Below, one piece after another: positions 3,001 to 49,600 of a stretch of 64,000 bases of DNA. The notes below the pieces were generated by a model, which saw nothing but the letters and a program-made list of their open reading frames with translations, was not told the origin of the DNA and did not search any database. Source of the DNA: Eledone cirrhosa (lineage: Eukaryota); assembly GCA_964016885.1 (NCBI GenBank), contig OZ024742.1:378262001-378326000 (forward strand), in the 5' to 3' direction. The translations under genes were made by a program, and so were the position numbers. The stretch's first letter is position 1, and each line of letters begins with the position of its first letter.

Positions 3001-3388
3001 CTACCAATACTGCCAATCCACCACCCTAGCATGGTGTCCTACCCTCTACCAATACTGCCAATCCACCACCCTACCATAGTGTCCATCCCTCTACCAATAC
3101 TGCCAATCCACCGCCCTAGCATGGTGTCAGACCCTCTACCAATACTGCCAATCCACAACCCTAGCATGGTGTCAGACTCTCTACCAATACTGCCAATCCA
3201 CAACCCTAGCATGGTGTCAGACCCTCTACCAATACTGCCAATCCACCGCCCTAGCATGGTGTCCTACTCTCTACCGACACTGCCAATCCACCACTCTAGC
3301 ATGGTGTCCTACCTTCTACCAATACTGCCAATCCACCGCACTATCATGGTGTCAGACCCTCTACCGACACTGCCAATCCACCGCCCCT
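1..3388. repeat. 45-bp tandem satellite (~75 monomers, runs off the window start); consensus ATGGTGTCCAACCCTCTACCAATACTGCCAATCCACCACCCTAGC
   Basis: 45-nt periodicity seen directly (15-aa repeat MVSNPLPILPIHHPS in the ORF track); monomer matches the reverse complement of the SINE head at 3555-3600 and 62345-62388. Confidence 0.97.
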
Positions 3389-3410
3389 TTAATAATAACA
3401 ATAATAATAA

Positions 3411-3600
3411 TTGTTTCTACATTTGGCACAAGGCCAGCAGTTATCCGGTGTATTACTGGTACTTTATTTGATCACCCCGTAGGTATTAAAGGCAAAGTTA
3501 ACCTCGGCGGGATTTAAACTCAGAATGGCTATCGCCGTAACTCTTTGCTGCAAAGCATGGCGTCCGACCCTCTACCGATACTGCCAGTCCACCGCCCCTT
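3411..3600 (-). mobile_element. tRNA-derived SINE (family 1), full length, (ATT)n tail
   Basis: Minus strand has A-box-like TGGCAGTATCGG and B-box-like GAGTTTAAATCCC; homologous copies at 54324, 55345, 55844, 56655, 59176, 62345; flanked by similar TTTAATAAT(A/T)ACAATAATAAT tracts. Confidence 0.88.
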
Positions 3601-4312
3601 TAATAATTACAATAATAATAATGCTTTCTTTATTAACCACAAGGGTTTACATAAAGTAGACATTAAGTACAGTGCAGGGCAATACAGGACGGTACAAATG
3701 GGCATTTCTGCGTGTTAAAAAAACAAAAACAGAGGATGTAACAAAAAAATAACAATGAAAAATTCCCCAATAGGGGGAGACTTCCGAGGGACATTTGTGG
3801 AGAAAGCCCATTAAAAGGCCACTGTCACCCTGACCACCAGGGCAAGTGCCCCCTCCCAGTTTTCCACCTTTAATTTACAGACAGATACTCAGAGTAGGCC
3901 CATTCACACTGGCCATACTTGCTTCTTTCACCCATCTTTCAGCAAAATGCTGGGAAGAGAGCACTTCCCTCTCTACCCTGATTTTCCTTTTCAAATGAAA
4001 TTTGAAAAAGTTAATCAGGGCATCACCGAAGAGGTAAGTGCTCGTCTTCAGCCCTTTCAGACGTGTCCACTATACTATCTCTTTCGCCATGGCCACCAGA
4101 CAGATAAAAACTGCCTGCCCTTCCCGGCTAAAGGAAGAGGGTGGGGAAATTGTCCATAGGCCCCGGCCCGAAAGTCATTCCGAAGAGATTAGCTAGTTGA
4201 TTTTCGTCTTTTCGTCGACGCTTAGAATTTCTCCAAGTACGTCGTCGCTCTTCCCATCCACTAATCCTCTATAGAACGCCAAGGTGGATTTTCCACCGAT
4301 CACATTGCTCGA

Positions 4313-6995: not shown

Positions 6996-7043
6996 CTGAG
7001 TTAGGTCATGTTGAAATGGAGTGGAAAATATGGGAAAGACCAC

Positions 7044-9192
7044 TTACGTTACTTCTCGTAGATGAAGGACGGTTTCTCCATCCTTTTCACTGCTTGTGGC
7101 CTCCTCAGGAAGGATGTCCTTATAAATCCTCCCGGAGAGTGCTTGTCGGAAGTCTCCGATGTCTTTGGGGAATTTTTGTTTTAGTGTCATGTACGTTTTC
7201 TGTGTGATGCGAGTGATTTGCATGTGTGGAGGTGGTGTGAAATTTTGGGTTGTTGTGTAGTCTTTTTCTGTGATGCTGGTGTTGTGTTGGATGTAGTGTA
7301 ATAATTGGTTGATGTTCAAATGTAATGCTGTGTAGTGTGTATCGTTTTGGTTGTTTTGTTTTGTTTGCGTTTGTTGTGGGTTTGTTTCTGTTTCGCATTT
7401 TGGTGACTTTTGTGGTGTAGGTGATGGTGGTGTTGGGGTTAATGATGGTGATGGTGTTGGTGTTTGGGGTGATGGGGTTGGTGTGGATGGTGGAGAGTTA
7501 GGTCATGTTGAAATGGAGTGGAAAATATGGGAAAGACCACTTACCTTACTTCTCATAGATGAAGGACGGTTTCTCCATCCTTTTCACTGCTTGTGGCCTC
7601 CTCAGGAAGGATGTCCTTATAAATCCTCCTGGAGAGTGCTTGTCGGAAGTCTCCGGTGTCTTTGGGGAATTTTTGTTTTAGTGTCATGTACGTTTTCTGT
7701 GTGATGCGAGTGATTTGCATGTGTGGAGGTGGTGTGAAATTTTGTTTGATAGTTTATTTGTTTCCCTCTGTATTTTATTTTTGGAGGGGGAAGGAAGAGA
7801 ATTTTTTCTTTTTTGGTTTCTTTTTTTCTTTTTTCCTGATACCGTTTCCCATTCCTCTTCGTCACAATCTGTCTCCAGTTGTGATAGGCCGGGGAGTGGA
7901 AAATACTCCACAGGCGTTAGTTTTGGTTGTGGCGTGGTGGATGGTGTAGGCGCTGGTGCTAGTTCTGGCGCGTTGGGTGGTGGTGGTGTTGGTTTTGCTA
8001 CTGTTGTTGGGGTTGTTGCTGTTACAGTTGCTTCTGTTGTTGCTGCTACAGTTGTTGCTGCCATCTTTGCTGCTGGTAGTGTTGATGGTTGAGTCACTGG
8101 GGTGGGTAGGAGAGGTGGCCTTAACCTTTTATCCTGAGGGCAGAAAGCCCTTAGGTGGGTTCCTTCACCACAATCGACACACCTAGGCCTTCTGCCCTCG
8201 GCGATTACGGTGAGGTGGCTGCCGTCAGTGAGGTCTATTACCTCTGGGATCTCCTCAATGCTTTTCTGGTCCTGCTTTTCTTTCGCTATTTCTATTATCT
8301 TGGTGTTGGCTTCGATGCCGGCGAGAACGGCAGCTATTAGCCAGGGAATTTCGATGGCCGGTGGAACGTGGGTCACCCTGATCTTTACGAGTCTCTGGTC
8401 ACAATAGCTTGGGACGAGTGTGAAGTTGTCACTTCTTAATGGGGCCATGGAGTGTTCTCTAGCCTCCACTGGTGTTTCAAAGAACACGTCCACGGTTCCA
8501 TGCTTTTGCCCACGGCTGATGTGGGTTTTTCTTGCCCACACACATGTCCCAAAGCTTTTTGGATTTGGGACTCGGATGCCCGTTCCACTCGGCGCGACTT
8601 TACATTAATTGTTCGATAAGACACGGTGCATAGGCGCCGATGCTCCATTTTATTAGGTGTGTGTGGGGGGGGGGGCTGATTCTGTACCCATCTTTCTTTA
8701 CCATTTTTTTGTCTTCTTCTAATTCCTCCTGAGTTACCTGAAATGCTTCGCACTGTTTTGCTACTCTGGCAAAACTCAGGGTGGTTTTCTTAATGTCATT
8801 GTTGCTGTTGTTGTTATCGTTATTTTTGTTATTATTAATTTTAGTTTCAGTTGTGGTGGTGGTGGCGTCAGTGGTGTTGGTGTGGAAGAGTTCATTTTGG
8901 TTGAATTCATTTCGACATGACGAGTTTATTTATTTTTTTCTTTTGTTTCTGTTGTCGCGGTGGTGGTGGGGGTGGTGGTTGTCGCGGTGGTGGTGGTGGT
9001 GGCGGCTTTAACACCTGCAGTCATTGGTAATGGCGGGAAATGACTGTCTGTCTGAGACAAATTTAAAATATTGCTACTGCTTAAATTTTTAGTGTTGGCA
9101 AACGTAGTAATATTTACAATGGTGGTGTCGGTGTGAGGTGTTAGTTTGTGAGGAAGGCTCTCAGTTGCTTGGTGCAGAGGTGAATCAGCCAT
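7044..9192 (-). pseudogene. T1 ORF1 (gag-like, RRM-like region + CCHC knuckle + Pro/Thr-rich tract), frameshifted, with a 250-bp internal insertion
   Basis: Pieces 8926-9192, 8436-8753, 7684-8541, 7044-7319; homologous to 37469-39072. Confidence 0.85.
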
Positions 9193-9457: not shown

Positions 9458-12400
9458 AAGAAGACGCACGAGGTGACGGAGGTCATGAAATCGCTCCCGT
9501 AAGTTTTGAATTTTTAACATATTTAAATCATTTGTGAAATAACAACTCTTAGTACAAATGCTACGTAAAGCACCCGGCTTGAGCCCCAAAAAATTCGGAC
9601 CCAAAATATATTGTTATAAGGCTCAAATATTCAAATATTCAACTTTGTATTGTACACTGTATATCCAAAAAAGAAAATGGCTATAAATGGAAGAAGAACC
9701 CCCCCCCCCTCTCCTCCTCTGTCTACACTATATAGAACAGCCAAACTCACCAACACCAGAAACTAGATACACCACCCACCCCATCACCTGTGTACACTAA
9801 ACCACCACCGCTCACTACGGCCATCATTACAACCATTATCCCATCACCGCCGCCACCACCCCTTCACTCCTTCACTGCTACCACCGCTACAGCACCATCA
9901 CTACAGTAATACGGTCACATCACCGCCACCACTGCCTCGGTATCGACATCACCACCACCACTCTCTCAGTATCGCTACCGCCGCCAGTCTCCCACTTCTT
10001 CCAGCTGGCTGCTACCACCACATTATAGAATCCCTACTACTAAAAAAGAGGAAGGCATCAAAATATATAGATAGACTCAAAAGAAAAAACAAACAACAAA
10101 ACCAAAGCAGCACAGCAACAACAGCAAAAAACGAGAAAAACAAACAGAGAAAAACAAAAACAAAAACAAAAAAAAACCCCCAAAAACGTAAAGAAAATAA
10201 GAATGAAGAGAGAAGCAGGCGGACGGACAGAGAAGAGGGGGGAAAAACTAAAACTTAAAAAACAAAAACTAAGTCAGACATTCGAACACTACATTACAAT
10301 GAAACTTATGCTTATTCATTTTTGGGGCCCTTTCTGCCTGTGTGTTTGTTTGTTTATGTGTGTTCGTATACAGCGTGGTGATAATGCCACACAAGGGCCA
10401 AGTGGAATGGCGGATCCACAGATGGATATGTAACCATACATTCGCCAATCCTCGATAAGAGTATTTAAATATCGAACATAAACAGTTCGAATAACGGTGA
10501 AATGGAGACTAGAACGTCATGTGACAGACTCTCACGCAACAGGTGCCCCCTGGCTCAGCAGCAGGAACCTGACTGTCAACCAAATACTGCTGATATTGGA
10601 GGAAGGAGAAGAAGGAAAGGGGCCAGAACCAACTGGACGAAAGAATTGAATAGAACTGTTATGCAATGTTACCTGAAAAGTAACCCCAAGGAGAGGGGCT
10701 ACAGGAGACGGATGCATAACATCTGGAACGAGATTGGTTTATTTAAATTAGATGAACAAAAATTGGCCGGGCAGGCCCGGGTAATAAGAACTAATGGATG
10801 GATAAGCGAGCTGGAACTGGAGGAAATGAGCAGAGAGAATGGCTTGGAGATGGCGGGTGTAGTATGCCAGACAAGCGAGCCAGTGGGAAATGAAGGTGAA
10901 GAGGTCCTGAGAACGGAGGAACCACCCGAAGCAGACAATGATCTGAATACTGAGATAAATAATACCTGGAACAGAGATACGGCCACTGAGGAGATGAATG
11001 CTGACGGGCTAGGACAAGATTCGGTTGACATCCTAAATTTAGTGGTAGATGAATTGAACAATGATAGTGGGAGACCTATGAACCTAAGATTTGTAGACAG
11101 GAAAAAGTTAAAAGAAACAACAGCTAAGGTAAACAAAGTCATCCCATACCTTGAGGCGAGGAGCCTTCACCAGTGCAACAATATCCTCAAAGCAACAGCA
11201 AATACGGTGAGGAAACTACTTGGTATAAAAGCGAGAGGAAACAACAGACAAGAAAGAGCAGAGCCCTGGTGGAAGAAGCGACTGAGTGGGCAAATCGGGG
11301 AAATGAGAAATGACATAGGAAAGCTTGAGTCACTACTGAATGGGACACTAAAAAACATAGGCACTAAAAATAGACTGGAAATAAAATACAAAACTAGGAG
11401 GAAAAAGCTAAATATTATCATAGAGGAACTGAAGCAACGCATTGTAGCAAAGAGTGCAAAAATCAGGCGATACGAGAACAGAGTCAGTCAGTATAAACAG
11501 AACCGCATGTTCGACAACAACCAGAAGATGCTGTTTGGGCAGCTTGAGGGGAAAGAAAGAGGCAACATCTTGATCCCTGGGGCGGAGCAAACTAAAACAT
11601 TCTGGAGAGGAATATGGGAGCAGGATGTTAGACACAATGCCCAGGCAGGGTGGATTGAGACAGTACAGAGGGAGATCGGTGAGCAGGCACAACAACAAAC
11701 TGATTTGAGTATCACAGTTGAAACTCTTAAGGGGCAGGCCAAAATATTAACCAACTGGAAATCACCAGGCCCAGATGGTGTGCAGGGGTATTGGATTAAA
11801 AATATAACATCCCTCCACCCGAAGCTGACGGCCATGTTCAATGACTGCTTGGTGTCGGGTGAGGTGCCAGAGTGGTTGACAAAAGGTACCACAGCTCTGA
11901 TAATGAAAGACCGAATCAAGGGTAATGATGTTACCAACTGTAGACCTATCACATGTCTGTCCGTAATGTGGAAACTGTTGACGAGCATTGTGTCTGAGGA
12001 AATCTACCATCACCTCCACACAAACAACTTGTTACCGGACGAACAGAAAGGATGCCGAAAGAAGTCACGTGGTACAAAGGACCAGTTACTTATTGATAAG
12101 ATGGTAATGGGGAATTGCAGGAGGAGACACACTGATCTTGCCATGGGATGGATAGACTACAGAAAGGCATTTGACATGGTGCCTCATTCCTGGATCACCA
12201 AAAGCCTGGAGATCTTCAGGGTGGCAGATAACATCAGACAGTTGCTAGGCAGGAGTATGGGGTCCTGGGAGACAGAGTTGACATCAACTGGAGTATCCTT
12301 GGGAAACGTGAAGATCAAGAGAGGTATCTTCCAGGGAGATAGCCTGTCCCCTCTGTTGTTTGTCCTTGCCCTGATGCCCTTGACCATTATGCTGCGAAAA

Positions 12401-13968
12401 GTGAGAGCAGGATACAAGTTGGGAAGGGGAGAGCTTACCATCAATCACCTCCTTTTCATGGACGATCTTAAGCTCTTCGGGAAAAGTGAGAAGGAGTTGG
12501 ATGTGCTTGTTGACACTGTCCGTATTTTCAGCAGTGATATATGTATGCAGTTTGGTATTGGTAAATGTGGAGTCATTGTGATGAAGACGGGTAGGTTGAG
12601 CAGAAGTAACGGGATCCAGATACCAACAGGTGAGATGATAAAGGAAATTGACTCTGAGGAAGGATACAAGTATTTGGGCGTTCTGGAGGCTGATGGCATA
12701 AAGAACAAAAAAATGAAGGAATTGTTAAGAACTGAATACATTCGGAGAGTAAGGAGCGTATTGAAGTCACATCTGAACAGCAGAAATGCCATAAGCGCAG
12801 TAAATTCCCGAGCTGTGTCTATTATTAGGTACAGTGCGGGAATTCTGAGATGGAATGTTGCTGAACAAAAAGAAATGGATAGGAAGACTAGGAAGCTATT
12901 GACTATCTACAACATGTTCCACAAGAGGAGTGATGTCGATAGACGCTATCTAAGGAGATCTGAGGGTGGAAGAGGTCTTATCAGCATAGAGGACTGTGTT
13001 CACATGGAGAAAAACAAACTATACAAATACGTGACCTATAGTAAGGAGCCAATGCTCAGAACTGTACTGAAGGAGGGGACAGTAGGCCAGGGGATGTCCA
13101 AGGAGGAAATAACATCAAGGAGGAAGAGCAGACTTAAGGGAAAATCCCTTCATAGTACCTTCTTTGAGAAAACTGAATTTAGAGATCCACAGACATGGAA
13201 CTGGTTGAGAAGAGGAGACCTCAAAAAGGCTACAGAAGGAATGCTAATGGCTGCGCAGGAGCAGGCCCTCAAAACGAAGTGGTTGAAACACCATATCTAC
13301 AAGGAGGAGGCTAGCCCACTGTGCAGGATCTGTGGAGAGAGAGAGGAGACTGTGGCTCACATTGTGTCCGAGTGTAAACACCTAGCCCAGACCCACTATA
13401 AGGGCTGGAGACACGATGTGATGGGCAGGGTGATCCACTGGCACCTGTGCAAAGTAAACAATTTACCACATTCTGAGAAATAGTATGAGTATAGGCCAGA
13501 GGCGGTGATGGAGAACAATCAGGTGAAGGTGCTGTGGGATTTTAGGATACAGACGGACAAAAAACTGGAACACAATAGACCTGACCTGGTGGTTGTGGAC
13601 AAAGAAAAAAGATCGTGTCTGATTGTGGATGTGGCCTGCCCGTTCGACACGAGAGTGCAAGAGAAGGAGAGGGAGAAAATTAACCGATACCAGGACCTAA
13701 AGTGGGAGGTGAAAAGGATTTGGAACTGCCATGAAGTCAAAGTGATCCCGATTGTCATAGGCGCACTGGGGACTATCTCCAAAAGTTTCCAGGGATGGTT
13801 AAAGAAAATCGGCCCCTTCACGCTTTTTGGAACGCTTCAAAAGGCATGCTTGCTTGGAACAGCAAGAACCCTCCGATACGTCCTGAATATCTGAGGCTGC
13901 AGGTAGTGGCTTGATATTCAATCCAACGGACTTTCCAGTTAACCAACATCAATGACTGAGATTCAAGG
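9458..13968 (+). mobile_element. R4/Dong-clade RLE retrotransposon copy D1 (subfamily a), full length
   Basis: Shared 5' terminus AAGAAGACGCACG; ORF with RT ([26 protein letters not shown]), CCHC, RLE (RPD..IVDVACPFD..EK..Y); (TAA)n tail 13969-14040. Confidence 0.93.
10502..13894 (+). pseudogene. D1 ORF, single nonsense change TGG>TAG at 13481 before the RLE domain
   Basis: 10502-13483 and 13505-13894 are in one frame; compare with intact 32013-35405. Confidence 0.92.
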
Positions 13969-14822: not shown

Positions 14823-17800
14823 GGGAAGAAGACGCACGTGGTGGATAGAAGGTCATGAAATCGCTCCCGTAAGTTTTTGATTTCTAACATATTTAAATCA
14901 ATTGTGAAATAACAATTCTTAGTACAAATGATACATAAAGCACCAGACTCAAGTCTCAGAAAAATTTGGATCCATAATATATTGTTATATCGCTCAAATA
15001 TTCAATTTTGTATTATACATTTTATATTCAAAAAAGAAAATGGTTATAAATGGAAGAAAACGCCCTCTGTCTACACTATATAGAACGGCCAAATAACAGC
15101 GATTTCACCAACACCACAAACTAGATACACCACCTATCCCATCACTCCTCTGTGTACACTAAATATAACAGCCAGATAACGGCAATTTCACCACCACCAC
15201 CACCAATCCCAGCATAATAATTATAATTGCTATTATTATTGTCTCAAGTTTTCACAAAATGTTTAATTCCAATATTAAGAAAATATGTCAACACATATAT
15301 TAAACATACGCGACTAACCGCATAGATTCACCGATCAAACAAACTACAGTCTATTCAACAAAACTCAGTAACGACAACGCCATCACTATAGTCACCGCCG
15401 CCACCACTCCTTCATTGCTACCACCGCTATTCCCCCATTACCTTCTGTTAACTTACGAAAGGGGAAGGTGGCGGTATCACTAGACAATATTAATAAACAA
15501 TATTAATATTAAATTTTGGATCAGGAATGTTGGAGTCGAAAAGGAGGAAAATGGCAAAATGACTAAATAGCTAAATAGCTAAAGATAATTTCACCACCAA
15601 CACCACCACCACTACCACACTAAAAACTCTGGTCAAGTTGCCTCAACCTCTATTTCTACTTCAACTTCAACACCATCACTACAGTACTACGATCACATCA
15701 CCACCATCACTGCCTCATTATCACTATCTCCGCTATTCTCTCCCACTACCTCCTGCTAGGTACTACTAGCACAGGACCACCACCACCACTGGCTCATTAT
15801 CACTACCGCCGCTATTCTCTCCCACTACATCCTGCTACATCGTAGTGTCCCCACTAAAAGAGGAAGGCATCAAAATATATAAATAGACTGAATTGATGAC
15901 ACGTTCAAAATCAAAAAACCAAAATCAAAATCAAAGCAGCACAGCAACAACGAAAAACGTAAAGAAAAGAAAAATGAAGAGAAGAACAAACAGACGGACA
16001 GAGAAGGGAGGGGAAAAACTAAGTCAGACATTCAAACATTACATTACAATGAAACTTATGCTTATTCATTTTTGTTTTTGTTTTTGCCTGTTTGTTTGTT
16101 TGTTTATTTACGTTCGTCTACAGCGTGATAATACCACACAAAAATCACCGGGAGTGACTAAATCACCGGTGGTTATGTAACCATACATTCGCCAATCCTC
16201 GATAAGAGTGTTTAAATGTCGAACCTAAACAGTTGGAATAACGGTGAAGTGGAGACTAGAATGTCATGTGACAGACTCTCACCCAACAGGTGCTCCCTGG
16301 CTCAGCAGCAGGGACCTGGCTGTCAACCAAATACTGCTGGTGTCGGAGGAAGAAGAAGAAGGAAAGGGACCAGAACCAACTGGACGAAAGAATTGAATAG
16401 AACTATTATGCAATGTTACCTGAAGAGTAACCCCAAGGAGAAAGGCTATAGGAAACGGATGCATAACATCTGGAACGAGATTGGTCTATTTAAATTAGAT
16501 GAACAAAAATTGGCCGGGCAGGCTCGGGTAATAAGAGCTAATGGGTGGATAAGCGAGCTGGAACTGGAGGAACTGAGCAGAGAGATTAGCTTGGAGATGG
16601 AGAGTGGAGTATGCCAGGCAAACGAGCCAGTGGGAAATGAAGGTGAAGAGGTCGAGAGAACGGAGGAACCACCCGAAGCAGACAATGATCTGAATGCTGA
16701 GATAAATAATACCTGGAACAGAGATACGGCCATTGAGCAGATGAAAGCTGACGGGCTAGGACAAGATTTGGTTGATATCCGAAACTTAGTGGTAGATGAA
16801 TTGAACAATGATAGTGGGAAACCTATGAACCTAAGATTTGTAGACGGGAAAAAGTTAAAAGAAACAACAGCTAAGGTAAACAAAGTCATCCCATACTTTG
16901 AGGCGAGGAGCCTTCACCAGTGCAACAATATCCTCAAAGCAACAGCAATTACGGTGAGGAAATTACTTGGTATAAAAGCGAGAGGAAATAACAAACAAGA
17001 AAGATCAGAGCCTTGGTGGAAGAAACGACTGAGTGGTCAAATCAGGGAAATGAGAAATGACATTGGAAAGCTTGAGTCCCTACTGAATGGGACACTAAAA
17101 AACATAGACACTAAAAATAGACTGGAAATAAAGTACAAAACTAGGAGGAAAAAGCTAAATATTATCATAGTGGAACTGAAGCAACACATTGTAGCAAAGA
17201 GTGCAAAAATCAGGCGATACGAGAACAGAGTCAGTCAGTATAGACAGAACCGCATGTTTGACAACAACCAGAAGATGCTGTTTGGACAGCTTGAAGGGAA
17301 ACAAAGAGGCAACGACTTGATCCCTGAGGCGGAACAAACTAAAACATTCTGGAGAGGAATATGGGAGCAGGATGTTAAACATAATGACCAGGCAGTGTGG
17401 ATTGAGACAGTACAGAAGGAGATTAGTGAACAGGCACACCAACAAACTGATTTGCGTATCACAGTTGAAACTCTTAAGCGGCGGCCAAAAAACTAACCAT
17501 CTGGAAATCACCAGGCCCAGATGGTGTGCAGGGGTATTGGATTAAACATTTAACATCCCTCCATCCGAAACTGACAAACATGTTCAATGACTGCTTGATG
17601 TCAGGTGAGGTACCAGAGTGGTTGACAAAAGGTACCACAGTTCTGATAATGAAAGACCGAATCAAGGGTAATGATGTTACCAACTATAGACCTATCACAT
17701 GTCTGTCCGTAATGTGGAAACTGTTGACAAGCATTATGTCTGAGGAAATCTACCATCACCTCCACACAAACAACTTGTTACCGGACGAACAGAAAGGATG

Positions 17801-25336: not shown

Positions 25337-26973
25337 CCACTGTGGAGCAGTTCAGTGATGACATTAAAATGGAGTTTGGACTAGATAAATGCGCCAAAGC
25401 AACGTTCACCAGAGGAAAGCTGCTGAAAATGTCAGACATTAATCTTGATCGAGGGAACGTGATAAGAGAACTTGATCAAGAGGAAACTTACAAATATCTA
25501 GCTGTTTGTGAAGGAGACGGAATCAAGCACTCGACAATGAGGGAAAGGATAAGGAAGGAATGTTACCGCAAAGTAAGAGCAATCTTAAGAACGGAATTGA
25601 ATGCAAGGAATAGGATCGATGCCATAAACACGCTTGCCATACCAGTAGTAACCTACAGTTACAATGTCATCAACTGGTCAAGCACGGAGATCCGTAGGCT
25701 CGATACAAAAATTCGAAAATTCTTTACCATGCACAGAATGCATCACCCTAAAGCAGATACAGATAGAATATATCTCCCTAGGAAAGAAGGAGGACGTGGG
25801 TTAATCCAGTTAGACATTGCGTTGAAAACTGCAACAATTGGATTATCTACATATCTAAGGGAATCACATGATTGGATGATCAAACTCGTTTTGAAACACG
25901 AAAGCATCAGAAGATCATACTCCATTACAAAAGATGCACAAAGATACAGTAATGGACTACACATTTCAGAAGTCCCATTTACTGCTAAAATGGAAAACAC
26001 AGAAAAAGCAAAGCAGGTAAAAGTAACTGCAAAGAAAGAACTGCTACAGAAACTGGCTAAGAAATAGCAAGAAAAGCCTCTGTATGGAAAATACCCAGAA
26101 CGCGCTAACAATCCTGATGTTGACAAAACTTTAACCCATCAGTGGTTGGCATCCTCTGGACTGAAATCGGAGACTGAAGGACTGATTATATCAGCACAAG
26201 ATCAGTGTCTGCCAACAAAAAATTACCAAGCCAACATAATAAAAAATGGATGCAGCCCATTATGCCGTGTATGTAAAAAAACAACCAGAGACCATTGACC
26301 ATATAATTTCAATGTGCAGTCCTATAGCTCCAACCGAATACCTAAACAGGCATGACAGAGCTGCACAATACATACATTGGATAATGTGTAAGCATTTTGA
26401 CCTGCCCCATCAAAAGAATTGGTGGGAGCATCAACCACCACCCATACTTGAAAAAGATCACATCTCAATCTTGTGGAACTTTAGCATCCAAACAGACCGA
26501 AAAATAGATGCAAATAGACCTGATATAATATTGTAGGACTTTAAAAAGAGGGTATGCCTGCTAATTGATATGTCCGTTCCAATAGACAAGAACGTATCTA
26601 TAAAAACATTTGAAAAATTGAGCAAGTATAAGGACCTGGAGATAGAAATTGGAAAAATGTGGAAATTGAGAACTAAAACAATACCAGTGGTTGTAGGCGC
26701 TCTAGGAATGATACCTAAGGGGTATAATGATTACTTATCGCAAATCCCAGGAAACCCGCGTATAGGAGAAATACAAAAGATAGTACTAATGGGAACTGCC
26801 CATATACTAAGGAAGATTCTGTCAATATAAGTACATCACAAGTCTAAACACTAAAGATGCATGTGTGAGTATGTATGTTCTTTCTTGAACATGGCGGACC
26901 TTGTTGTCTCTTGAGGTCACTGGTTGTGACTTGGTGATAACTCGTATGAACATAAAGCAAGATAAATGCAGCT

Positions 26974-26974
<1 letters not shown>
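25337..26974 (+). mobile_element. 5'-truncated R4-clade element, second family (E1), degenerate
   Basis: FSDDIKMEFGLDKC, YKYL, LPRKEGGRGL, RPD..DMSVP.D..EKLSKYKDL; (TAA)n tail 26975-27020. Confidence 0.9.
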
Positions 26975-27021: not shown

Positions 27022-27022
<1 letters not shown>

Positions 27023-30000
27023 GTGATAATGCCACACAAAAATCACCGGGAGTGACTAAATCACCGGTGGTTATGTAACCATACATTCGCCAAACCTCGA
27101 TAAGAGTGTTTAAATGTCGAACCTAAACAGTTCGAATAACGGTGAAGTGGAGACTAGAATGTCATGTGACAGATTCTCACCCAACAGGTGCTCCCTGGCT
27201 CAGCAGCAGGGACCTGGCTGTCAACCAAATACTGCTGGTGTCGGAGGAAGAAGAAGAAGGAAAGGGACCAGAACCAACTGGACGAAAGAATTGAATAGAA
27301 CTGTTATGCAATGTTACCTGAAGAGTAACCCCAAGGAGAAAGGCTATAGGAAACGGATGCATAACATCTGGAACGAGATTGGTCTATTTAAATTAGATGA
27401 ACAAAATTGGCCGAGCAGGCTCCGGTAATAAGAGCTAATGGGTGGATAAGCGAGCTGGAACTGGAGGAACTGAGCAGAGAGAATGGCTTGGAGATGGCGG
27501 GTGTAGTATGCCAGGCAAACGAGCCAGTGGGAAATAAAGGTGAAGAGGTCGAGAGAACGGAGGAGCCACCCGAAGCAGACAATGATCTGAATGCTGAGAT
27601 AAATAATACCTGGAACAGAGATACGGCCATTGAGGAGATGAATGCTGACGGGCTAGGACAAGATTTGGTTGACATCCTAAACTTAGTGGTAGATGAATTG
27701 AACAATGATAGTGGGAAACCTATGAACCTAAGATTTGTAAATAGGAAAAAGTTAAAAGAAACAACAGCTAAGGTAAACAAAGTCATCCCATACCTTGAGG
27801 CGAGGAGCCTTCACCAGTGCAACAATATCCTCAAAGCAACAGCAAATACGGTGAGGAAATTACTTGGTATAAAAGCGAGAGGAAACAACAGACAAGAAAG
27901 ATCAGAGCCTTGGTGGAAGAAACGACTGAGTGGTCAAATCAGGGAAATGAGAAATGACATTGGAAAGCTTGAGTCCCTACTGAATGGGACACTAAAAATA
28001 GACGTGAAATAAAGTACAAAACTAGGAGGAAAAAGCTAAATACTATCATACAGGAACTGAAGCAACGCATTGTAGCAAAGAGTGCAAAAATCAGGCGATA
28101 CGAGAACAGAGTCAGTCAGTATAGACAGAACCGCATGTTCGACAACAACCAGAAGATGCTGTTTGGACAGCTTGAAGGGAAAGAAAGAGGCATCGACTTG
28201 ATCCCTGAGGCGGAACAAACTAAAACATTCTGGAGAGGAATATGGGAGTAGGATGTTAAACATAATGACCAGGCAGTGTGGATTGAGACAGTACAGAAGG
28301 AGATTAGTGAACAGGCACACCAACAAACTGATTTGAGTATCACAGTTGAGACTCTTAAGGGGCAGGCCAAAAAACTAACCATCTGGAAATCACCAGGCCC
28401 AGATGGTGTGCAGGGGTATTGGATTAAAAATATAACATCCCTCCACCCGAAACTGACAACCGTGTTCAATGACTGCTTGATGTCAGGGGAGGTACCATAG
28501 TGGTTGACAAAAGGTACCACAGTTCTGATAATGAAGGACCGAATCAAGGGTAATGATGTTACCAACTATAGACCTATCACATGTCTGTCCGTAATGTGGA
28601 AACTGTTGACAAGCATTATGTCTGAGGAAATCTACCATCACCTCCACACAAACAACTTGTTACCGGACGAACAGAAAGGATGCCGAAAGAAGTCACGTGG
28701 TACAAAGGACCAGTTACTTATTGATAAGATGGTAATGAGGAATTGCAAGAGGAGACACACTGGTCTTGCCATGGGATGGATAGACTACAAAAAGGCATTT
28801 GAAATGGTGACTCATTCTTGGATCACCAAAAGCCTGGAGATCTTCAAGTTGGCAGATAACATCAGACAGTTGTTGGGCAAAAGTATGAAGTCCTGGGAAA
28901 CAGAGCTAACATCAACTGGAGAATCCTTGGGAAGCGTGAAGATCAAGAGAGCTATCTTCCAGGGAGATAGTCTGTCCCCTCTGTTGTTTGTACTTGCCCT
29001 GATGCCCCTGACCAGTGTACTGCGAAAAGTGAGAGCAGGATACAGGTTGGGAAAGGGGTGGGTGGGCTTACCATCAATCACCTCCTCTTCATGGACGATC
29101 TTAAGCTCTTCGGGAAGAGTGAGAAGGAGTTGGATGTGCCTGTTGACACTGTCCGTATTTTCAGCAATGATATATGTATGCAATTTGGTATTAGTAAGTG
29201 TGGAGTCCTTGTGATGAAGAGGGGGTAAATTGAGCAGAAGTAACGGAATCCAGGTACCAACAGGTGAGATGATAAAGGAAATTGACACTGAAGAAGGATA
29301 CAAGTATTTGGGTGTTCTGGAGGCTGATGACATCAAGAACAAAAAAATGAAGGAATTGATAAGAACTGAATACATTCGGAGAGTAAGGAGCGTATTAAAG
29401 TCACATCTGAACAGGAGGAATGCCATAAGTGCAGTAAATTCCAGAGCTGTGTCTATTATTAGGTACAGTGCGGGAATTCTGAGATGGAATGTTGCTGAAC
29501 AAAAAGAAATGGATAGGAAGACTAGGAAGCTATTGACTATCTACAATATGTTCCACAAGAGGAGTGATGTCGATAGATTCTACGTAAGGAGATCTGAGGG
29601 TGGAAGAGGTCTTATCAGCATAGAGGACTGTGTTCAGATGGAGAAAAACAACCTACACAAATACGTGACTGATAGTAAGGAGCCAATGCTCAGAACTGTA
29701 CTGAAGGAGGGGACAATAGACCAGGGGATGTCCAAGGAGGAAATAACATCAAGGAGAAAGAGCAGCCTTCAGGAAAATTCCCTTCATAGTACCTTCTTTG
29801 AGAAAACTGAATTTAGAGATCCACAGACATGGAACTGGTTGAAAAGAGGAGACCTTAAAAAGGCTACAGAAGGAATGTTAATGGCTGCGCAGGAGCAGGC
29901 TCTCAAAACGAAGTGCTTGAAACACCACATTTACAAGGAGGAGGCTAGCCCACCGTGCAGGATCTGTGGAGAGAGAGAGGTGACTGTGGCTCACATTGTA

Positions 30001-30604
30001 TCCGAGTATAAACACCTAGCCCAGACTCACTATAAGGGCTGGAGACATGATGTGATGGGCAGGGTAATCCACTGGCACCTATGCAAAGTAAACAATTAAC
30101 CACATTCTGAGAAGTGGTATGAGCATAAGCCAGAGTCGGTGATAGAAAACGATCAGGTGAAGGTGCTGTGGGATTTTAGGATACAGACGGACAAGAAACT
30201 GGAACACAATAGACCTGACCTGGTGGTTTTGGACAAAGGAAAAAGATCGTGCCTGATTGTGGATGTGGCCTGCCCATTCGACACGAGAGTGCAAGAGAAG
30301 GAGAGGGAGAAAATTAACCGATACCAGGACTTAAAGTGGGAGGTAAAAAGGATTTGGAACTGCCATGAAGTCAAAGTGATCCCGATTGTCATAGGCGCAC
30401 TAGGGACTATCTCAAAAAGTTTCCAGGGATGGTTATAGAAAATTGGCCCTTTCACGCTTTTTGGAACGCTTCAAAAGGCATGCTTGCTGGGAACAGCAAG
30501 AACCCTCCGATACGTCCTGAATATCTGAGGCTGCAGGTAGTGGCTTGATATTCATTTCAACAAACTTTCCAGTTAACTAACATCAATGACTGAGACTCAA
30601 AGAG
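27022..30604 (+). mobile_element. R4/Dong copy D3 (subfamily b), lacks most of the 5' UTR, multiple stops and frameshifts
   Basis: Begins CGTGATAATGCC directly after (AAT)n; ORF pieces 27114-30528; 3' UTR like D2. Confidence 0.92.
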
Positions 30605-30629: not shown

Positions 30630-33600
30630 AAGGGAAGAAGACGCACGAGGTGACGGAGGTCATGAAATCGCTCCCGTAAGTTTTGAATTTTTAACATATT
30701 TAAATCATTTGTGAAATAACAACTCTTAGTACAAATGCTACGTAAAGCACCCGGCTTGAGCCCCCAAAAAATTCGGACCCAAAATATATTGTTATAAGGC
30801 TCAAATATTCAAATATTCAACTTTGTATTGTACACTGTATATCCAAAAAAAAATGGCTATAAATGGAAGAAGAAGAACCCCCCCCCCCTCCTCTCCTCTG
30901 GCTACACTATATAGGACAGCTAAACTCACCAACACCAGAAACTAGATACACCACCCACCCCATCATCTGTGTACACTAAACACAACAGCATTTTCACCTT
31001 CACCGCCACCGCTCACTACGGCCATCATTACCACCACTATCCCATCACCGCCGCCACCACCCCTTGACTCCTTCACTGCTGCTGCCACCGCTACAGCACC
31101 ATCACTACAGTAATACGGCTCAAATATTCAAATATTCAACTTTGTATTGTACACTGTATATCCAAAAAAAAATAAAATGGCTATAAATGGAAGAAGAAGA
31201 ACCCCCCCCCCCCTCCTCTCCTCTGGCTACACTATATAGGACAGCGAAACTCACCAACACCAGAAACTAGATACACCACCCACCCCATCATCTGTGTACA
31301 CTAAACACAACAGCATTTTCACCTTCACCGCCACCGCTCACTACGGCCATCATTACCACCACTATCCCATCACCGCCGCCACCACCCCCTGACTCCTTCA
31401 CTGCTGCTGCCACCGCTACAGCACCATCACTACAGTAATACGGTCGCATCACCGCCACCACTGCCTCGGTATCGACATCACCACCACCACTGTCTCAGTA
31501 TCGCCAACGCCGCCAGTCTCTGCTGGCTACCACTTCCACATTATAGAATTCCTACTACTAACAAAGAGGAAGGCATCAAAATATATAGATAGACTCAAAA
31601 GAAAAAAGAAAAAACAAACAACAAAAGCAGCACAGCAACAACAGTAAAAAACGAGAAAAACAGAGAAAAACAAAAACAAAAAAAGAAACCCCAAAAACGT
31701 AAAGAAAATAAGAATGAAGAGAGAAGCAGGCGGACGGACAGAGAAGAGGGGGGAAAAAGTAAAACTTAAAAAACAAAAACTAAGTCAGACATTCGAATAC
31801 TACATTACAATGAAACTTATGCTTATTCATTTTTGGGGCCCTTTCTGCCCGTGTGTTTGTTTGTTTATGTGTGTCCGTATACAGCGTGGTGATAATGCCA
31901 CACAAGGGCCAAGTGGGATGGCGGATCCACAGATGGCTATGTAAACATACATTCGCCAATCCTCGATAAGAGTGTTTAAATATCGAACATAAACAGTTGG
32001 AATAACGGTGAAATGGAGACTAGAACGTCATGTGACAGACTCTCACCCAACAGGTGCCCCCTGGCTCAGCAGCAGGAACCTGACTGTCAACCAAATACTG
32101 CTGATGTTGGAGGAAGAAGAAGAAGGAAAGGGGCCAGAACCAACTGGACGAAAGAATTAAATAGAACTGTTATGCAATGCTACCTGAAAAGTAACCCCAA
32201 GGAGAGGGGCTACAGGAGACGGATGCATAACATCTGGAACGAGATTGGTTTATTTAAATTAGATGAACAAAAATTGGCCGGGCAGGCTCGGGTAATAAGA
32301 ACTAATGGGTGGATAAGCGAGCTGGAACTGGAGGAACTGAGCAGAGAGAATGGCTTGGAGATGGCGGGTGTAGTATGCCAGACAAGCGAGCCGGCGGGAA
32401 ATGAAGGTGAGGAGGTCCTGAGAACGGAGGAACCACCCGAAGCAGACAATGATCTGAATACTGAGATAAATAATACCTGGAACAGAGATACGGCCACTGA
32501 GGAGATGAATGCTGACGGGCTAGGACAAGATTCGGTTGACATCCTAAATTTAGTGGTAGATGAGTTGAACAATGATAGTGGGAGACCTATGAACCTAAGA
32601 TTTGTAGACAGGAAAAAGTTAAAAGAAACAACAGCTAAGGTAAACAAAGTCATCCCATACCTTGAGGCGAGGAGTCTTCACCAGTGCAACAATATCCTCA
32701 AAGCAACAGCAAATACGGTGAGGAAACTACTTGGTATAAAAGCGAGAGGAAACAACAGACAAGAAAGAGCAGAGCCGTGGTGGAAGAAGCGACTGAGTGG
32801 GCAAATCGGGGAAATGAGAAATGACATAGGAAAGCTTGAGTCACTACTGAATGGGACACTAAAAAACATAGGCACTAAAAATAGACTGGAAATAAAATAC
32901 AAAACTAGGAGTAAAAAGCTAAATATTATCATAGAGGAATTGAAGCAACGCATTGTAGCAAAGAGTGCCAAAATCAGGCGATACGAGAACAGAGTCAGTC
33001 AGTATAAACAGAACCGCATGTTCGACAACAACCAGAAGATGCTGTTTGGACAGCTTGAGGGGAAAGAAAGAGGCAACGACTTGATCCCTGGGGCGGAACA
33101 AGCTAAAACATTCTGGAGAGGAATATGGGAGCAGGATGTTAGACACAATGCCCAGGCAGGGTGGATTGAGACAGTACAGAGGGAGATCGGTGAGCAGGCA
33201 CAGCAACAGACTGATTTGAGTATCACAGTTGAAACTCTTAAGGGGCAAGCCAAAAAACTAACCAACTGGAAATCACCAGGCCCAGATGGTGTGCAGGGGT
33301 ATTGGATTAAACATTTAACATCCCTCCACCCGAAGCTGACGGCCATGTTCAATGACTGCTTGGTGTCGGGTGAGGTGCCAGAGTGGTTGACAAAAGGTAC
33401 CACAGTTCTGATAATGAAAGACCGAATCAAGGGTAATGATGTTACCAACTATAGACCTATCACATGTCTGCCCGTAATGTGGAAACTGTTGACGAGCATT
33501 GTGTCTGAGGAAATCTACCATCACCTCCACACAAACAACTTGTTGCCGGACGAACAGAAAGGATGCCGAAAGAAGTCACGTGGTACAAAGGACCAGTTGC

Positions 33601-35479
33601 TTATTGATAAGATGGTAATGGGGAATTGCAGGAGGAGACACACTGATCTTGCCATGGGATGGATAGACTACAGAAAGGCATTTGACATGGTGCCTCATTC
33701 CTGGATCACCAAAAGCCTGGAGATCTTCAGGGTGGCAGATAACATCAGACAGTTGCTGGGCAGGAGTATGGGGTCCTGGGAGACAGAGTTGACATCAACT
33801 GGAGTATCCTTGGGAAGCGTGAAGATCAAGAGAGGTATCTTCCAGGGAGATAGCCTGTCCCCTCTGTTGTTTGTCCTTGCCCTGATGCCCTTGACCATTA
33901 TGCTGCGAAAAGTGAGAGCAGGATACAAGTTGGGAAGGGGAGAGCTTACCATCAATCACCTCCTCTTCATGGACGATCTTAAGCTCTTCGGGAAAAGTGA
34001 GAAGGAGTTGGATGTGCTTGTTGACACTGTCCGTATTTTCAGCAGTGATATATGTATGCAGTTTGGTATTGGTAAATGTGGAGTCATTGTGATGAGGAGG
34101 GGTAGGTTGAGCAGAAGTAACGGGATCCAGATACCAACAGGTGAGATGATAAAGGAAATTGACTCTGAGGAAGGATACAAGTATTTGGGCGTTCTGGAGG
34201 CTGATGGCATAAAGAACAAAAAAATGAAGGAATTGTTAAGAACTGAATACATTCGGAGAGTAAGGAGCGTATTGAAGTCACATCTGAACAGCAGAAATGC
34301 CATAAGCGCAGTAAATTCCCGAGCTGTGTCTATTATTAGGTACAGTGCGGGAATTCTGAGATGGAATGTTGCTGAACAAAAAGAAATGGATAGGAAGACT
34401 AGGAAGCTATTGACTATCTACAACATGTTCCACAAGAGGAGTGATGTCGATAGACTCTACCTAAGGAGATCTGAGGGTGGAAGAGGTCTTATCAGCATAG
34501 AGGACTGTGTTCAGATGGAGAAAAACAACCTATACAAATACGTGACCTATAGTAAGGAGCCAATGCTCAGAGCTGTACTGAAGGAGGGGACAGTAGGCCA
34601 GGGGATACCCAAGGAGGAAATAACATCAAGGAGGAAGAGCAGCCTTAAGGGAAAATCCCTTCATAGTACCTTCTTTGAGAAAACTGAATTTAGAGATCCA
34701 CAGACATGGAACTGGTTGAGAAGAGGAGACCTCAAAAAGGCTACAGAAGGAATGCTAATGGCAGCGCAGGAGCAGGCCCTCAAAACGAAGTGGTTGAAGC
34801 ACCATATCTACAAGGAGGAGGCTAGCCCACTGTGCAGGATCTGTGGAGAAAGAGAGGAGACTGTGGCTCACATTGTGTCCGAGTGTAAACACCTAGCCCA
34901 GACCCACTATAAGGGCTGGATACACGATGTGATGGGCAGGGTGATCCACTGGCACCTGTGCAAAGTAAACAATCTACCACATTCTGAGAAATGGTATGAG
35001 CATAGGCCAGAGGCGGTGATGGAGAACAGTCAGGTGAAGGTGCTGTGGGATTTTAGGATACAGACGGACAAAAAACTGGAACACAATAGACCTGACCTGG
35101 TGGTTGTGGACAAAGAAAAAAGATCGTGCCTGATTGTGGATGTGGCCTGCCCGTTCGACACGAGAGTGCAAGAGAAGGAGAGGGAGAAAATTAACCGATA
35201 CCAGGACCTAAAGTGGGAGGTGAAAAGGATTTGGAACTGCCATGAAGTCAAAGTGATCCCGATTGTCATAGGCGCACTGGGGACTATCTCCAAAGGTTTC
35301 CAGGGATGGTTAAAGAAAGTCGGCCCCTTCACGCTTTTTGGAACGCTTCAAAAGGCATGCTTGCTTGGAACGGCAAGAACCCTCCGATACGTCCTGAATA
35401 TCTGAGGCTGCAGGTAGTGGCTTGATATTCAATCCAACGGACTTTCCAGTTAACCAACATCAATGACTGAGATTCAAGG
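30630..35479 (+). mobile_element. R4/Dong copy D4 (subfamily a), full length, ORF intact
   Basis: Both termini present, (AAT/AAC)n on both sides, ~320-bp tandem duplication in the 5' UTR. Confidence 0.95.
32013..35405 (+). CDS. R4/Dong polyprotein 1130 aa: N-terminal Myb-like region, reverse transcriptase, CCHC finger, PD-(D/E)xK restriction-like endonuclease
   Basis: Uninterrupted ORF; KSPGPDG, YRPITCL, DYRKAFD, QGDSLSP, FMDD, CRICGEREETVAHIVSEC, RPD/VDVACPFD/EKINRY. The Myb-like call is family knowledge, not verified here. Confidence 0.95.
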   Translation: METRTSCDRLSPNRCPLAQQQEPDCQPNTADVGGRRRRKGARTNWTKELNRTVMQCYLKSNPKERGYRRRMHNIWNEIGLFKLDEQKLAGQARVIRTNGWISELELEELSRENGLEMAGVVCQTSEPAGNEGEEVLRTEEPPEADNDLNTEINNTWNRDTATEEMNADGLGQDSVDILNLVVDELNNDSGRPMNLRFVDRKKLKETTAKVNKVIPYLEARSLHQCNNILKATANTVRKLLGIKARGNNRQERAEPWWKKRLSGQIGEMRNDIGKLESLLNGTLKNIGTKNRLEIKYKTRSKKLNIIIEELKQRIVAKSAKIRRYENRVSQYKQNRMFDNNQKMLFGQLEGKERGNDLIPGAEQAKTFWRGIWEQDVRHNAQAGWIETVQREIGEQAQQQTDLSITVETLKGQAKKLTNWKSPGPDGVQGYWIKHLTSLHPKLTAMFNDCLVSGEVPEWLTKGTTVLIMKDRIKGNDVTNYRPITCLPVMWKLLTSIVSEEIYHHLHTNNLLPDEQKGCRKKSRGTKDQLLIDKMVMGNCRRRHTDLAMGWIDYRKAFDMVPHSWITKSLEIFRVADNIRQLLGRSMGSWETELTSTGVSLGSVKIKRGIFQGDSLSPLLFVLALMPLTIMLRKVRAGYKLGRGELTINHLLFMDDLKLFGKSEKELDVLVDTVRIFSSDICMQFGIGKCGVIVMRRGRLSRSNGIQIPTGEMIKEIDSEEGYKYLGVLEADGIKNKKMKELLRTEYIRRVRSVLKSHLNSRNAISAVNSRAVSIIRYSAGILRWNVAEQKEMDRKTRKLLTIYNMFHKRSDVDRLYLRRSEGGRGLISIEDCVQMEKNNLYKYVTYSKEPMLRAVLKEGTVGQGIPKEEITSRRKSSLKGKSLHSTFFEKTEFRDPQTWNWLRRGDLKKATEGMLMAAQEQALKTKWLKHHIYKEEASPLCRICGEREETVAHIVSECKHLAQTHYKGWIHDVMGRVIHWHLCKVNNLPHSEKWYEHRPEAVMENSQVKVLWDFRIQTDKKLEHNRPDLVVVDKEKRSCLIVDVACPFDTRVQEKEREKINRYQDLKWEVKRIWNCHEVKVIPIVIGALGTISKGFQGWLKKVGPFTLFGTLQKACLLGTARTLRYVLNI

Positions 35480-46636: not shown

Positions 46637-49600
46637 AAGGGAAGAAGACGCACGAGGTGACGGAGGTCATGAAATCGCTCCCGTAAGTTTTGAATTTTTA
46701 ACATATTTAAATCATTTGTGAAATAACAACTCTTAGTACAAATGCTACGTAAAGCACCCGGCTTGAGCCCCAAAAAAATTCGGACCCAAAATATATTGTT
46801 ATAAGGCTCAAATATTCAAATATTCAACTTTGTATTGTACACTGTATATCCAAAAAAAAATGGCTATAAATGGAAGAAGAAGAACCCCCCCCCCCCCTCC
46901 TCTCCTCTGGCTACACTATATAGGACAGCTAAACTCACCAACACCAGAAACTAGATACACCACCCACCCCATCATCTGTGTACACTAAACACAACAGCAT
47001 TTTCACCTTCACCGCCACCGCTCACTACGGCCATCATTACCACCACTATCCCATCACCGCCGCCACCACCCCTTGACTCCTTCACTGCTGCTGCCACCGC
47101 TACAGCACCATCACTACAGTAATACGGTCGCATCACCGCCACCACTGCCTCGGTATCGACACCACCACCACCACTGTCTCAGTATCGCCAACGCCGCCAG
47201 TCTCTGCTGGCTGCCACTTCCACATTATGGAATTCCTACTACTAACAAAGAGGAAGGCATCAAAATATATAGATAGACTCAAAAGAAAAAAGAAAAAACA
47301 AACAACAAAAGCAGCACAGCAACAACAGCAAAAAACGAGAAAAACAAACAGAGAAAAACAAAAACAAAAAAAGACACCCCAAAAACGTAAAGAAAATAAG
47401 AATGAAGAGAGAAGCAGGCGGACGGACAGAGAAGAGGGGGGAAAAAGTAAAACTTAAAAAACAAAAACTAAGTCAGACATTCGAATACTACATTACAATG
47501 AAACTTATGCTTATTCATTTTTGGGGCCCTTTCTGCCCGTGTGTTTGTTTGTTTATGTGTGTCCGTATACAGCGTGGTGATAATGCCACACAAGGGCCAA
47601 GGATGGCGGATCCACAGATGGCTATGTAAACATACATTCGCCAATCCTCGATAAGAGTGTTTAAATATCGAACATAAACAGTTCGAATAACGGTGAAATG
47701 GAGACTAGAACGTCATGTGACAGACTCTCACCCAACAGGTGCCCCCTGGCTCAGCAGCAGGAACCTGACTGTCAACCAAATACTGCTGATGTTGGAGGAA
47801 GAAGAAGAAGGAAAGGGGCCAGAACCAACTGGACGAAAGAATTGAATAGAACTGTTATGCAATGCTACCTGAAAAGTAACACCAAGGAGAGGGGCTACAG
47901 GAGACGGATGCATAACATCTGGAACGAGATTGGTTTATTTAAATTAGATGAACAAAAATTGGCCGGGCAGGCTCGGGTAATAAGAACTAATGGGTGGATA
48001 AGCGAGCTGGAACTGGAGGAACTGAGCAGAGAGAATGGCTTGGAGATGGCGGGTGTAGTATGCCAGACAAGCGAGCCGGCGGGAAATGAAGGTGAGGAGG
48101 TCCTGAGAACGGAGGAACCACCCGAAGCAGACAATGATCTGAATACTGAGATAAATAATACCTGGAACAGAGATACGGCCACTGAGGAGATGAATGCTGA
48201 CGGGCTAGGACAAGATTCGGTTGACATCCTAAATTTAGTGGTAGATGAGTTGAACAATGATAGTGGGAGACCTATGAACCTAAGATTTGTAGACAGGAAA
48301 AAGTTAAAAGAAACAACAGCTAAGGTAAACAAAGTCATCCCATACCTTGAGGCGAGGAGTCTTCACCAGTGCAACAATATCCTCAAAGCAACAGCAAATA
48401 CGGTGAGGAAACTACTTGGTATAAAAGCGAGAGGAAACAACAGACAAGAAAGAGCAGAGCCGTGGTGGAAGAAGCGACTGAGTGGGCAAATCGAGGAAAT
48501 GAGAAATGACATAGGAAAGCTTGAGTCACTATGAATGGGACACTAAAAAACATAGGCACTAAAAATAGACTGGAAATAAAATACAAAACTAGGAGTAAAA
48601 AGCTAAATATTATCATAGAGGAATTGAAGCAACGCATTGTAGCAAAGAGTGCCAAAATCAGGCGATACGAGAACAGAGTCAGTCAGTATAAACAGAACCG
48701 CATGTTCGACAACAACCAGAAGATGCTGTTTGGACAGCTTGAGGGGAAAGAAAGAGGCAACGACTTGATCCCTGGGGCGGAACAAGCTAAAACATTCTGG
48801 AGAGGAATATGGGAGCAGGATGTTAGACACAATGCCCAGGCAGGGTGGATTGAGACAGTACAGAGGGAGATCGGTGAGCAGGCACAGCAACAGACTGATT
48901 TGAGTATCACAGTTGAAACTCTTAAGGGGCAAGCCAAAAAACTAACCAACTGGAAATCACCAGGCCCAGATGGTGTGCAGGGGTATTGGATTAAACATTT
49001 AACATCCCTCCACCCGAAGCTGACGGCCATGTTCAATGACTGCTTGGTGTCGGGTGAGGTGCCAGAGTGGTTGACAAAAGGTACCACAGTTCTGATAATG
49101 AAAGACCGAATCAAGGGTAATGATGTTACCAACTATAGACCTATCACATGTCTGCCCGTAATGTGGAAACTGTTGACGAGCATTGTGTCTGAGGAAATCT
49201 ACCATCACCTCCACACAAACAACTTGTTGCCGGACGAACAGAAAGGATGCCGAAAGAAGTCACGTGGTACAAAGGACCAGTTGCTTATTGATAAGATGGT
49301 AATGGGGAATTGCAGGAGGAGACACACTGATCTTGCCATGGGATGGATAGACTACAGAAAGGCATTTGACATGGTGCCTCATTCCTGGATCACCAAAAGC
49401 CTGGAGATCTTCAGGGTGGCAGATAACATCAGACAGTTGCTGGGCAGGAGTATGGGGTCCTGGGAGACAGAGTTGACATCAACTGGAGTATCCTTGGGAA
49501 GCGTGAAGATCAAGAGAGGTATCTTCCAGGGAGATAGCCTGTCCCCTCTGTTGTTTGTCCTTGCCCTGATGCCCTTGACCATTATGCTGCGAAAAGTGAG

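Follow-up and report, generated by a model that had tools for sequence, protein, structure and literature searches.

Dong and R4 elements carry one open reading frame (ORF), with a reverse transcriptase (RT) and a C-terminal restriction-like endonuclease, and use (TAA)n as their target (PMC7998251). Bombyx Dong and R4 are reported to form their 5' end by self-cleavage of an HDV-like ribozyme (PMC3774820). Five recently active Dong-R4 families have been described in octopus, with 1129 insertions and 4.73 Mb of sequence, at ~4.2 kb each (PMC13282606; PMC9115989); splicing goes unmentioned in the main texts of these two papers. A literature search, with most subscription papers and the Repbase reports lying outside its coverage, returned no report of an intron in R4/Dong.

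Introns and splice sites are documented in other retroelements. The 5' UTR of human L1 contains functional splice sites, namely a conserved donor (G98U99) close to the 5' end and acceptors downstream. L1 splicing occurs at a low rate, so that the RNA is mostly unspliced and most 5' UTRs with the conserved donor stay unspliced; the spliced insertions known as SpIREs make up ~2% of full-length insertions, have lost promoter activity and are dead ends, and the splice sites are described as rarely used and as retained for other reasons (PMC5860796). Penelope-like elements keep spliceosomal introns through retrotransposition, and copying from an antisense or an unspliced template has been proposed as the means of retention (PMC3846280; PMC4209133). 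The original prediction for the locus described here was of a retained intron in the 5' UTR of a Dong-type family, and it described intron retention as known for Penelope-like elements, which is correct, and as unusual for non-LTR elements, which needs a limit, since human L1 has both 5' UTR splice sites and spliced insertions (PMC5860796). Splicing within a 5' UTR is thus not new for non-LTR elements. The Dong leader differs in having what looks like the anatomy of one dedicated GT-AG intron.

The Dong family and its surroundings

The window, by which is meant the whole 64-kb stretch of DNA that was analysed, is occupied from ~3,400 to ~51,300 by a retroelement train seated on (TAA)n tracts. 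Five copies of the Dong-type family are present in the window, all on the + strand, and the TAA tracts at the flanks of all five point to insertion into (TAA)n; the copies with the intron-like leader are 4.5-4.9 kb in size. The 1141-aa frame of copy 4 gives an RVT_1 match (Pfam, E 5.8e-23), and the closest solved relatives of its protein are R2 proteins (E 4e-30). A CCHC knuckle and PD..D motifs, common to the full-length homologues, were seen by eye at the C-terminal end of the alignment, and are named here from a motif pattern that we take to mark a knuckle and a restriction-like endonuclease; here Pfam gives a weak zf-RVT match only. Taken together, the single RT ORF, the C-terminal motifs and the TAA target fit a placement in the R4/Dong clade. 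Neither a GIY-YIG domain (Pfam) nor terminal repeats (self-comparison) were found in the family. Copies 1, 4 and 5 form subfamily a, with ORFs 98-99.6% alike, and copies 2 and 3 form subfamily b.

Other repeats share the window. A second Dong-like family is represented in the same TAA arrays by truncated pieces at 25337-26974 and 39411-39692, 98% alike over 330 bp. Two-ORF elements on the - strand have an exonuclease-endonuclease-phosphatase domain and an RT and are probably Tx1-like. In these, GTAAGT overlaps the ORF1 stop (23014, 7544 and 7047 on the - strand), CTAAC and CAG follow ~45 nt past it near the ORF2 start, and one copy has a 250-bp direct duplication (98%; 6998-7247 and 7495-7744) at the ORF1/ORF2 junction. 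A 45-bp minisatellite of 75 copies, with one frame open for more than 400 codons, fills positions 1-3386, and a dispersed ~200-bp repeat of SINE- or MITE-like appearance occurs on both strands at 3404-3621, 55337-55552, 56646-56849, 59176-59330 and 62337-62543 (78-86% alike).

Anatomy of the leader

The leaders of the four full-length copies are 1047-1391 nt long, and the features of the proposed intron are collected in Table 1. The GT and TACAG positions assigned to the four copies by the original prediction are all exact. In each leader GTAAGT lies 39-46 nt past the TAA tract or 5' end and is the sole GTRAG; the exon side of the putative donor, CCC, is weak. A 14-nt ATG motif occurs four times on the + strand of the window and never on the - strand. 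The putative introns measure 875, 1255, 1209 and 890 nt (copies 1, 2, 4 and 5) and hold 7-12 ATGs each.

Table 1. Coordinates of the Dong copies and of the putative splicing features in their leaders
Feature	Position	Strand	Remarks
Copy 1 putative exon 1	9460..9498	+	first bases lost; ATG at 9485
Copy 1 putative 5' splice site GTAAGT	9499..9504	+	within a 28-nt run invariant in 4/4 copies
Copy 1 putative intron	9499..10373	+	875 nt
TATAAA within copy 1 intron	9682..9687	+	in 4/4 copies (others at 15045, 30858/31182, 46865); putative role only
35-nt invariant block	10290..10324	+	two CTTAT branch-point-like motifs, A at 10308 and 10314
T/GT-rich, A-poor tract	10325..10368	+	~72% identity between subfamilies
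Copy 1 putative 3' splice site TACAG	10369..10373	+	ends a 94-nt AG-free zone
Copy 1 putative exon 2 leader	10374..10501	+	reaches subfamily-a ATG at 10502; contains rejected AAACAG (10480-10485)
Copy 1 main reading frame	10469..13483	+	1004 aa stop to stop, premature end
Copy 2 (subfamily b) exon 1 and intron	14823..16123	+	donor 14869, acceptor 16123, ATG 16216
Copy 3 (subfamily b)	27022..30600	+	TAA tract directly before; without exon 1 or intron
Copy 4 exon 1 and intron	30632..31884	+	donor 30676, acceptor 31884
Copy 4 intact ORF	31980..35405	+	1141 aa stop to stop, ATG 32013; RT, CCHC knuckle, restriction-like endonuclease motif
Copy 5 exon 1 and intron	46638..47572	+	donor 46683, acceptor 47572, ATG 47698

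At the 3' end of the putative intron, 94 AG-free nucleotides precede the terminal AG in all four copies, against 4.5-5.3 AG per 100 nt in the intron; T makes up 0.16-0.24 of the intron body and 0.49-0.65 of its final 57 nt. The pyrimidine share at the TACAG acceptor is 0.67-0.75 and its YAG is CAG. Branch-point-like motifs are found at -66 and -60 (CTTAT) and at -18 (TTTAT), the invariant block lying 49-83 nt before the AG. Branch points are usually nearer to the AG than the 56-66 nt that separate it from the CTTAT motifs. Two further features of the leaders can be mentioned here: a 325-bp tandem duplication (30794-31443) within the intron of copy 4, which doubles the TATAAA motif, and a weak downstream-promoter-like motif near +28, which fits copies 4 and 5 and is shifted in copy 2.

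The signals were set against chance expectation in two ways. In dinucleotide shuffles of the leaders, a qualifying acceptor arises in 0-1 of 2000 and a donor together with an acceptor in 0 of 2000, with thresholds that were set post hoc (copies 4 and 5, at 0.47, fall just below the 0.48 applied); GTAAGT appears anywhere in 230-369 of 2000 shuffled leaders (12-18%). In the real sequence of the window, the acceptor-like signature is also present at 14 of ~3,890 other YAGs, which corresponds to ~8-10% per leader. At a threshold of 0.45, 9 of 1800 YAGs pass on the + strand, four of them being the Dong acceptors, and 9 of 2093 on the - strand. GTAAGT occurs 15 times on the + strand and 10 times on the - strand, an expectation of ~1% per 60-nt stretch. 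The window background is less extreme than the shuffles suggest, so the acceptor alone is unremarkable and it is the ordered set of signals that stands out.

Conservation between the subfamilies

Because the ORFs of copies 1, 4 and 5 are so similar, only the comparison of subfamily a with subfamily b is informative, and it represents two lineages in all. Between copies 5 and 2, identity is 39/43 in exon 1, 165/192 in the first 200 nt of the intron, 362/491 in the mid-intron, 36/50 in the last 50 nt of the intron, 72/89 in the exon-2 leader and 3204/3422 in the ORF. Invariant runs in the leader are longest over the CTTAT motifs (35 nt), in exon 2 (28 nt) and over the donor (28 nt). By permutation, p is 5e-5 for the first of these, with the final 225 nt of the leader as background, and 0.017 for the donor run, with the initial 245 nt as background; in the ORF, 31 of 236 invariant runs reach 27 nt.

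The T-rich tract varies between the subfamilies yet avoids A. Its differences comprise one G/A and five G/T exchanges, where the remainder of the leader has 59 and 11, respectively (Fisher p 0.001); such an excess of G/T could also arise by slippage, the tract resembling a GTTT repeat. The earlier observation that the large indels all lie between the splice sites proves uninformative, since 21 of 24 leader indel rows fall in an intron that makes up 87% of the leader; for rows of at least 4 nt the count is 17 of 17 (p ~0.09). Both indels in exon 2 are of 3 nt, and two are not enough to demonstrate that an upstream frame is kept.

Translation starts

The subfamilies differ in their possible start codons, ATA..ATG in a and ATG..GTG in b, and AAACAG is present at 10485 and 31996, both as originally described. 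The proposal that splicing to this AAACAG joins the upstream ATG in frame to the main ORF finds no support: four to five AGs lie between the sites, the pyrimidine share is 0.37-0.41, compared with 0.63-0.70 at TACAG, and homologues begin at the subfamily-b ATG. In the homologue alignment, which holds 11 of 12 matches, seven of the 11 have their initial Met at this ATG or a few residues away from it; in subfamily a the corresponding codon has changed to ATA and the subfamily's own ATG lies 11 codons further on. Since the homologues place the main start at the downstream ATG, the ATG of exon 1 is not needed.

In unspliced RNA, the frame from the exon-1 ATG (9485) stops after five codons at a TAA inside GTAAGT. 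After a splice to the first AG, that of TACAG, the exon-1 ATG would head an upstream frame that runs for 15 codons in b or 31-32 in a and stops short of the main ATG. The leader preceding the main ORF would contain 12-14 ATGs if unspliced (1047-1391 nt) vs 2-5 if spliced (136-172 nt).

A copy that begins at the proposed acceptor

The first base of copy 3 (27022) is the base right after the acceptor AG of the other copies, and 47 nt of TAA repeat stand before it. Its exon-2 leader matches copy 2 at 87/89 positions and copy 5 at 72/89, and its ORF matches copy 2 at 3307/3404 positions, against 3204/3422 between copies 2 and 5, so that copy 3 is a sister of copy 2 in subfamily b. The long leader is present in copy 2, with which copy 3 nests, and in subfamily a as well, so copy 3 has lost it; an ancestral short form is unlikely on the same grouping. 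Nor does copy 3 look like one part of a full-length copy interrupted by the second Dong family, the DNA upstream of it being without exon 1 or intron.

A uniformly placed break point would fall on this exact base with a chance of ~1 in 4,500, and within 5 nt of it with a chance of ~1 in 400, figures that apply to one event, picked out post hoc. The DNA of copy 3 has no join of exon 1 to exon 2 such as marks a SpIRE, the TAA repeat abutting exon 2 directly, and copy 3 therefore does not belong with the spliced insertions known from L1. One of the five copies is without the intron, and none of the five lacks the intron and retains exon 1. Possible origins of copy 3 are a halt of the RT where factors occupy the acceptor, a spliced template that had lost exon 1 (44 nt), a splice from upstream read-through RNA, or chance. 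The first three of these would need recognition of the AG.

Read contigs over copy 5

Contigs from four (X1, X4, X5 and X6) of 24 sequencing runs were examined over copy 5; none of the 24 is recorded as RNA, which carries no information about expression. None of the eight joints listed for these contigs connects donor to acceptor. Contigs drop rare forms, and two X6 joints and 239 loose ends stand outside this count, so that copies like copy 3 go uncounted in it. Run X1 is deep, and the joints listed for it likewise include no form that has exon 1 and lacks the intron. In X5, whose kind is unrecorded, one contig crosses the donor uncut and another crosses the acceptor uncut (records 17 and 21), record 17 extending 24 letters into the TAA tract. 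Two variants in X5 (47777 and 48109) are absent from the other three runs, and X5 could be RNA from a few loci. The summed contig depth of X5 at 46808-47527, in mid-intron, is far above that of the ORF and falls near the branch block, unlike in X1, X4 and X6; such depth cannot rank the parts of a gene, and that of X5 is inflated by A-rich unrelated contigs. These results speak against spliced RNA being copied often, not against splicing itself.

Relatives and the ribozyme search

A metagenome scan gave 63 loci with relatives, for 18 of which the upstream DNA was inspected; no relatives were found among viral contigs. Ten relatives with the ORF start in view (the L002-L008 group, L011, L015, L020 and L027), at 36-49% identity, have leaders of ~150-250 nt, preceded by TAA-type tracts where the contig reaches, and no GTAAG donor was found in these ten leaders. 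As the relatives' leaders are short, the long leader is likely to be a gain of the window's Dong lineage. Long pyrimidine tracts without a GTAAG donor are seen in the leaders of L001 (470-640), L013 (170-330) and L027 (150-180), L001 and L013 being without the N-terminal part of the ORF. In L002, L004-L008, L011, L015 and L044 a conserved leader with a partly covarying structure lies ~150 nt before the ORF start, a covarying hairpin being followed by GCAGCTAAGG. This leader may be a ribozyme; it has no Rfam match, and it could not be fitted to the HDV fold.

In the window, an uncalibrated search for an HDV-like ribozyme gave no descriptor match at the four 5' ends or the five exon-2 starts. 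The strict descriptor gave no match anywhere, the loose one matched 2-22 of 30 shuffles, and nothing convincing was found in the relatives either. Rfam returned nothing real, and the fold z values are +0.85 and +0.97.

Discussion

The anatomy of the leader is better supported than had originally been claimed, through the branch-point block, the A-avoiding tract and the start of copy 3 at the acceptor. From the sequence of the copies, we give about an even chance that the leader contains a real GT-AG intron, recognised by the spliceosome, which is mostly retained and cut out part of the time. The spliceosome would recognise the donor, the branch-like block, the A-poor tract and the acceptor, with excision in only some of the RNAs. 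Spliced RNA, with its shorter leader and fewer upstream ATGs, would be the better message, its protein presumably starting at the exon-2 ATG, and the family would be sustained through unspliced RNA as template, since copies without the intron would be deprived of promoter sequence in the manner of L1 SpIREs. Reverse transcription that ended at a protein-bound or processed acceptor would account for copy 3. Weighing against a real intron are that no spliced molecule was seen, that X5 contigs cross both sites uncut, that no copy among the five drops the intron and keeps exon 1, the weak CCC on the exon side, the distant branch motifs, the restriction of the comparison to two lineages and the invariant runs of similar length in exon 2 and in the ORF.

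The signals may instead be kept for binding, of U1 at the donor and of U2AF/U2 at the acceptor, with cutting as rare as in human L1; the purpose could be nuclear retention of the RNA, the blocking of early polyadenylation, or a shield from the silencing of intron-less transcripts. The last of these recalls human cells, in which introns protect transgenes from HUSH even when unspliced (PMC8770142). That no donor-acceptor joint is listed and that X5 contigs cross both sites uncut is what binding alone would give, as with most L1 5' UTRs that have the conserved donor (PMC5860796), and a bound acceptor would explain copy 3 too. The GTAAGT at the ORF1 stop of the Tx1-like LINE raises the standing of such an explanation, since U1 sites are then kept by two LINEs that are unrelated and lie in the same arrays. 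Against this, the full set of donor, branch motifs, tract and AG, with its 94-nt AG-free zone, exceeds what binding needs, and a leader that always kept its 12-14 upstream ATGs would be a poor message, so that retention for binding alone seems unlikely. It is also quite unlikely that these are not splice signals at all, the leader being a promoter or translation-entry region with a chance GTAAGT and a U/GU-rich tract that binds other proteins or stalls the RT. The low-complexity window does hold the acceptor-like signature at 14 other YAGs, GTAAGT does turn up in 12-18% of shuffled leaders, L013/L001 and L027 have pyrimidine tracts with no GTAAG donor, and TATAAA is kept inside the intron. However, three coincidences would be required, namely a donor in the first 46 nt (~1%), the order of branch motif, tract and AG, and the start of copy 3 at the AG; moreover, the tract is preceded by no canonical polyadenylation hexamer, AATGAA being the only approach to one.

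A real acceptor might also be used mainly by read-through RNA from upstream elements or host exons, copy 3 being a product of such RNA. Read-through is expected of elements lined up in tandem on TAA tracts, as these are, record 17 of X5 does enter the TAA tract by 24 letters, and TAG variants in these tracts create weak GTAATA donors (39714-39720). Yet a donor in a TAA tract would be weak, the invariant donor of the family is left unexplained, and upstream of copy 3 there is nothing exon-like, just the truncated second Dong family and TAA; this makes the read-through origin very unlikely.

If the intron is real, a further step can be proposed, which we regard as improbable taken as a whole. 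The Dong lineage would have exchanged the ribozyme leader of its clade for a gene-like first exon and an intron; splicing would sort an exported message from a nuclear unspliced template, the intron, being needed, would be kept in every round, and stops of the RT at the spliceosome-bound acceptor would give rise recurrently to copies that start at exon 2. Non-LTR elements copy from their own RNA, so that one round should be enough to eliminate an intron that is spliced well. Where a family retains its intron, message and template must be kept apart, or the splice signals must serve as a shield. This bears on how site-specific proteins of the R2/R4 type choose their template RNA, a question also for gene-insertion tools. 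If splicing is rare, the family would be a second case of what human L1 shows.

Among known systems, Dong of Bombyx mori and R4 of Ascaris have the same ORF plan and TAA target as the window family, and the mean size of ~4.2 kb for octopus Dong-R4 is near that of the copies here. Compared with Bombyx Dong and R4, the window family has a 1.0-1.4 kb leader with splice signals, and the uncalibrated search found no ribozyme. Penelope-like elements, which also keep introns, belong to another class, with a GIY-YIG endonuclease and terminal repeats. The arrangement is like that of human L1 in having a donor near the 5' end and an acceptor further down the 5' UTR. In contrast to L1, the anatomy here looks like one dedicated intron, and whereas SpIREs retain exon 1, the intron-less copy 3 of the window begins directly with exon 2.
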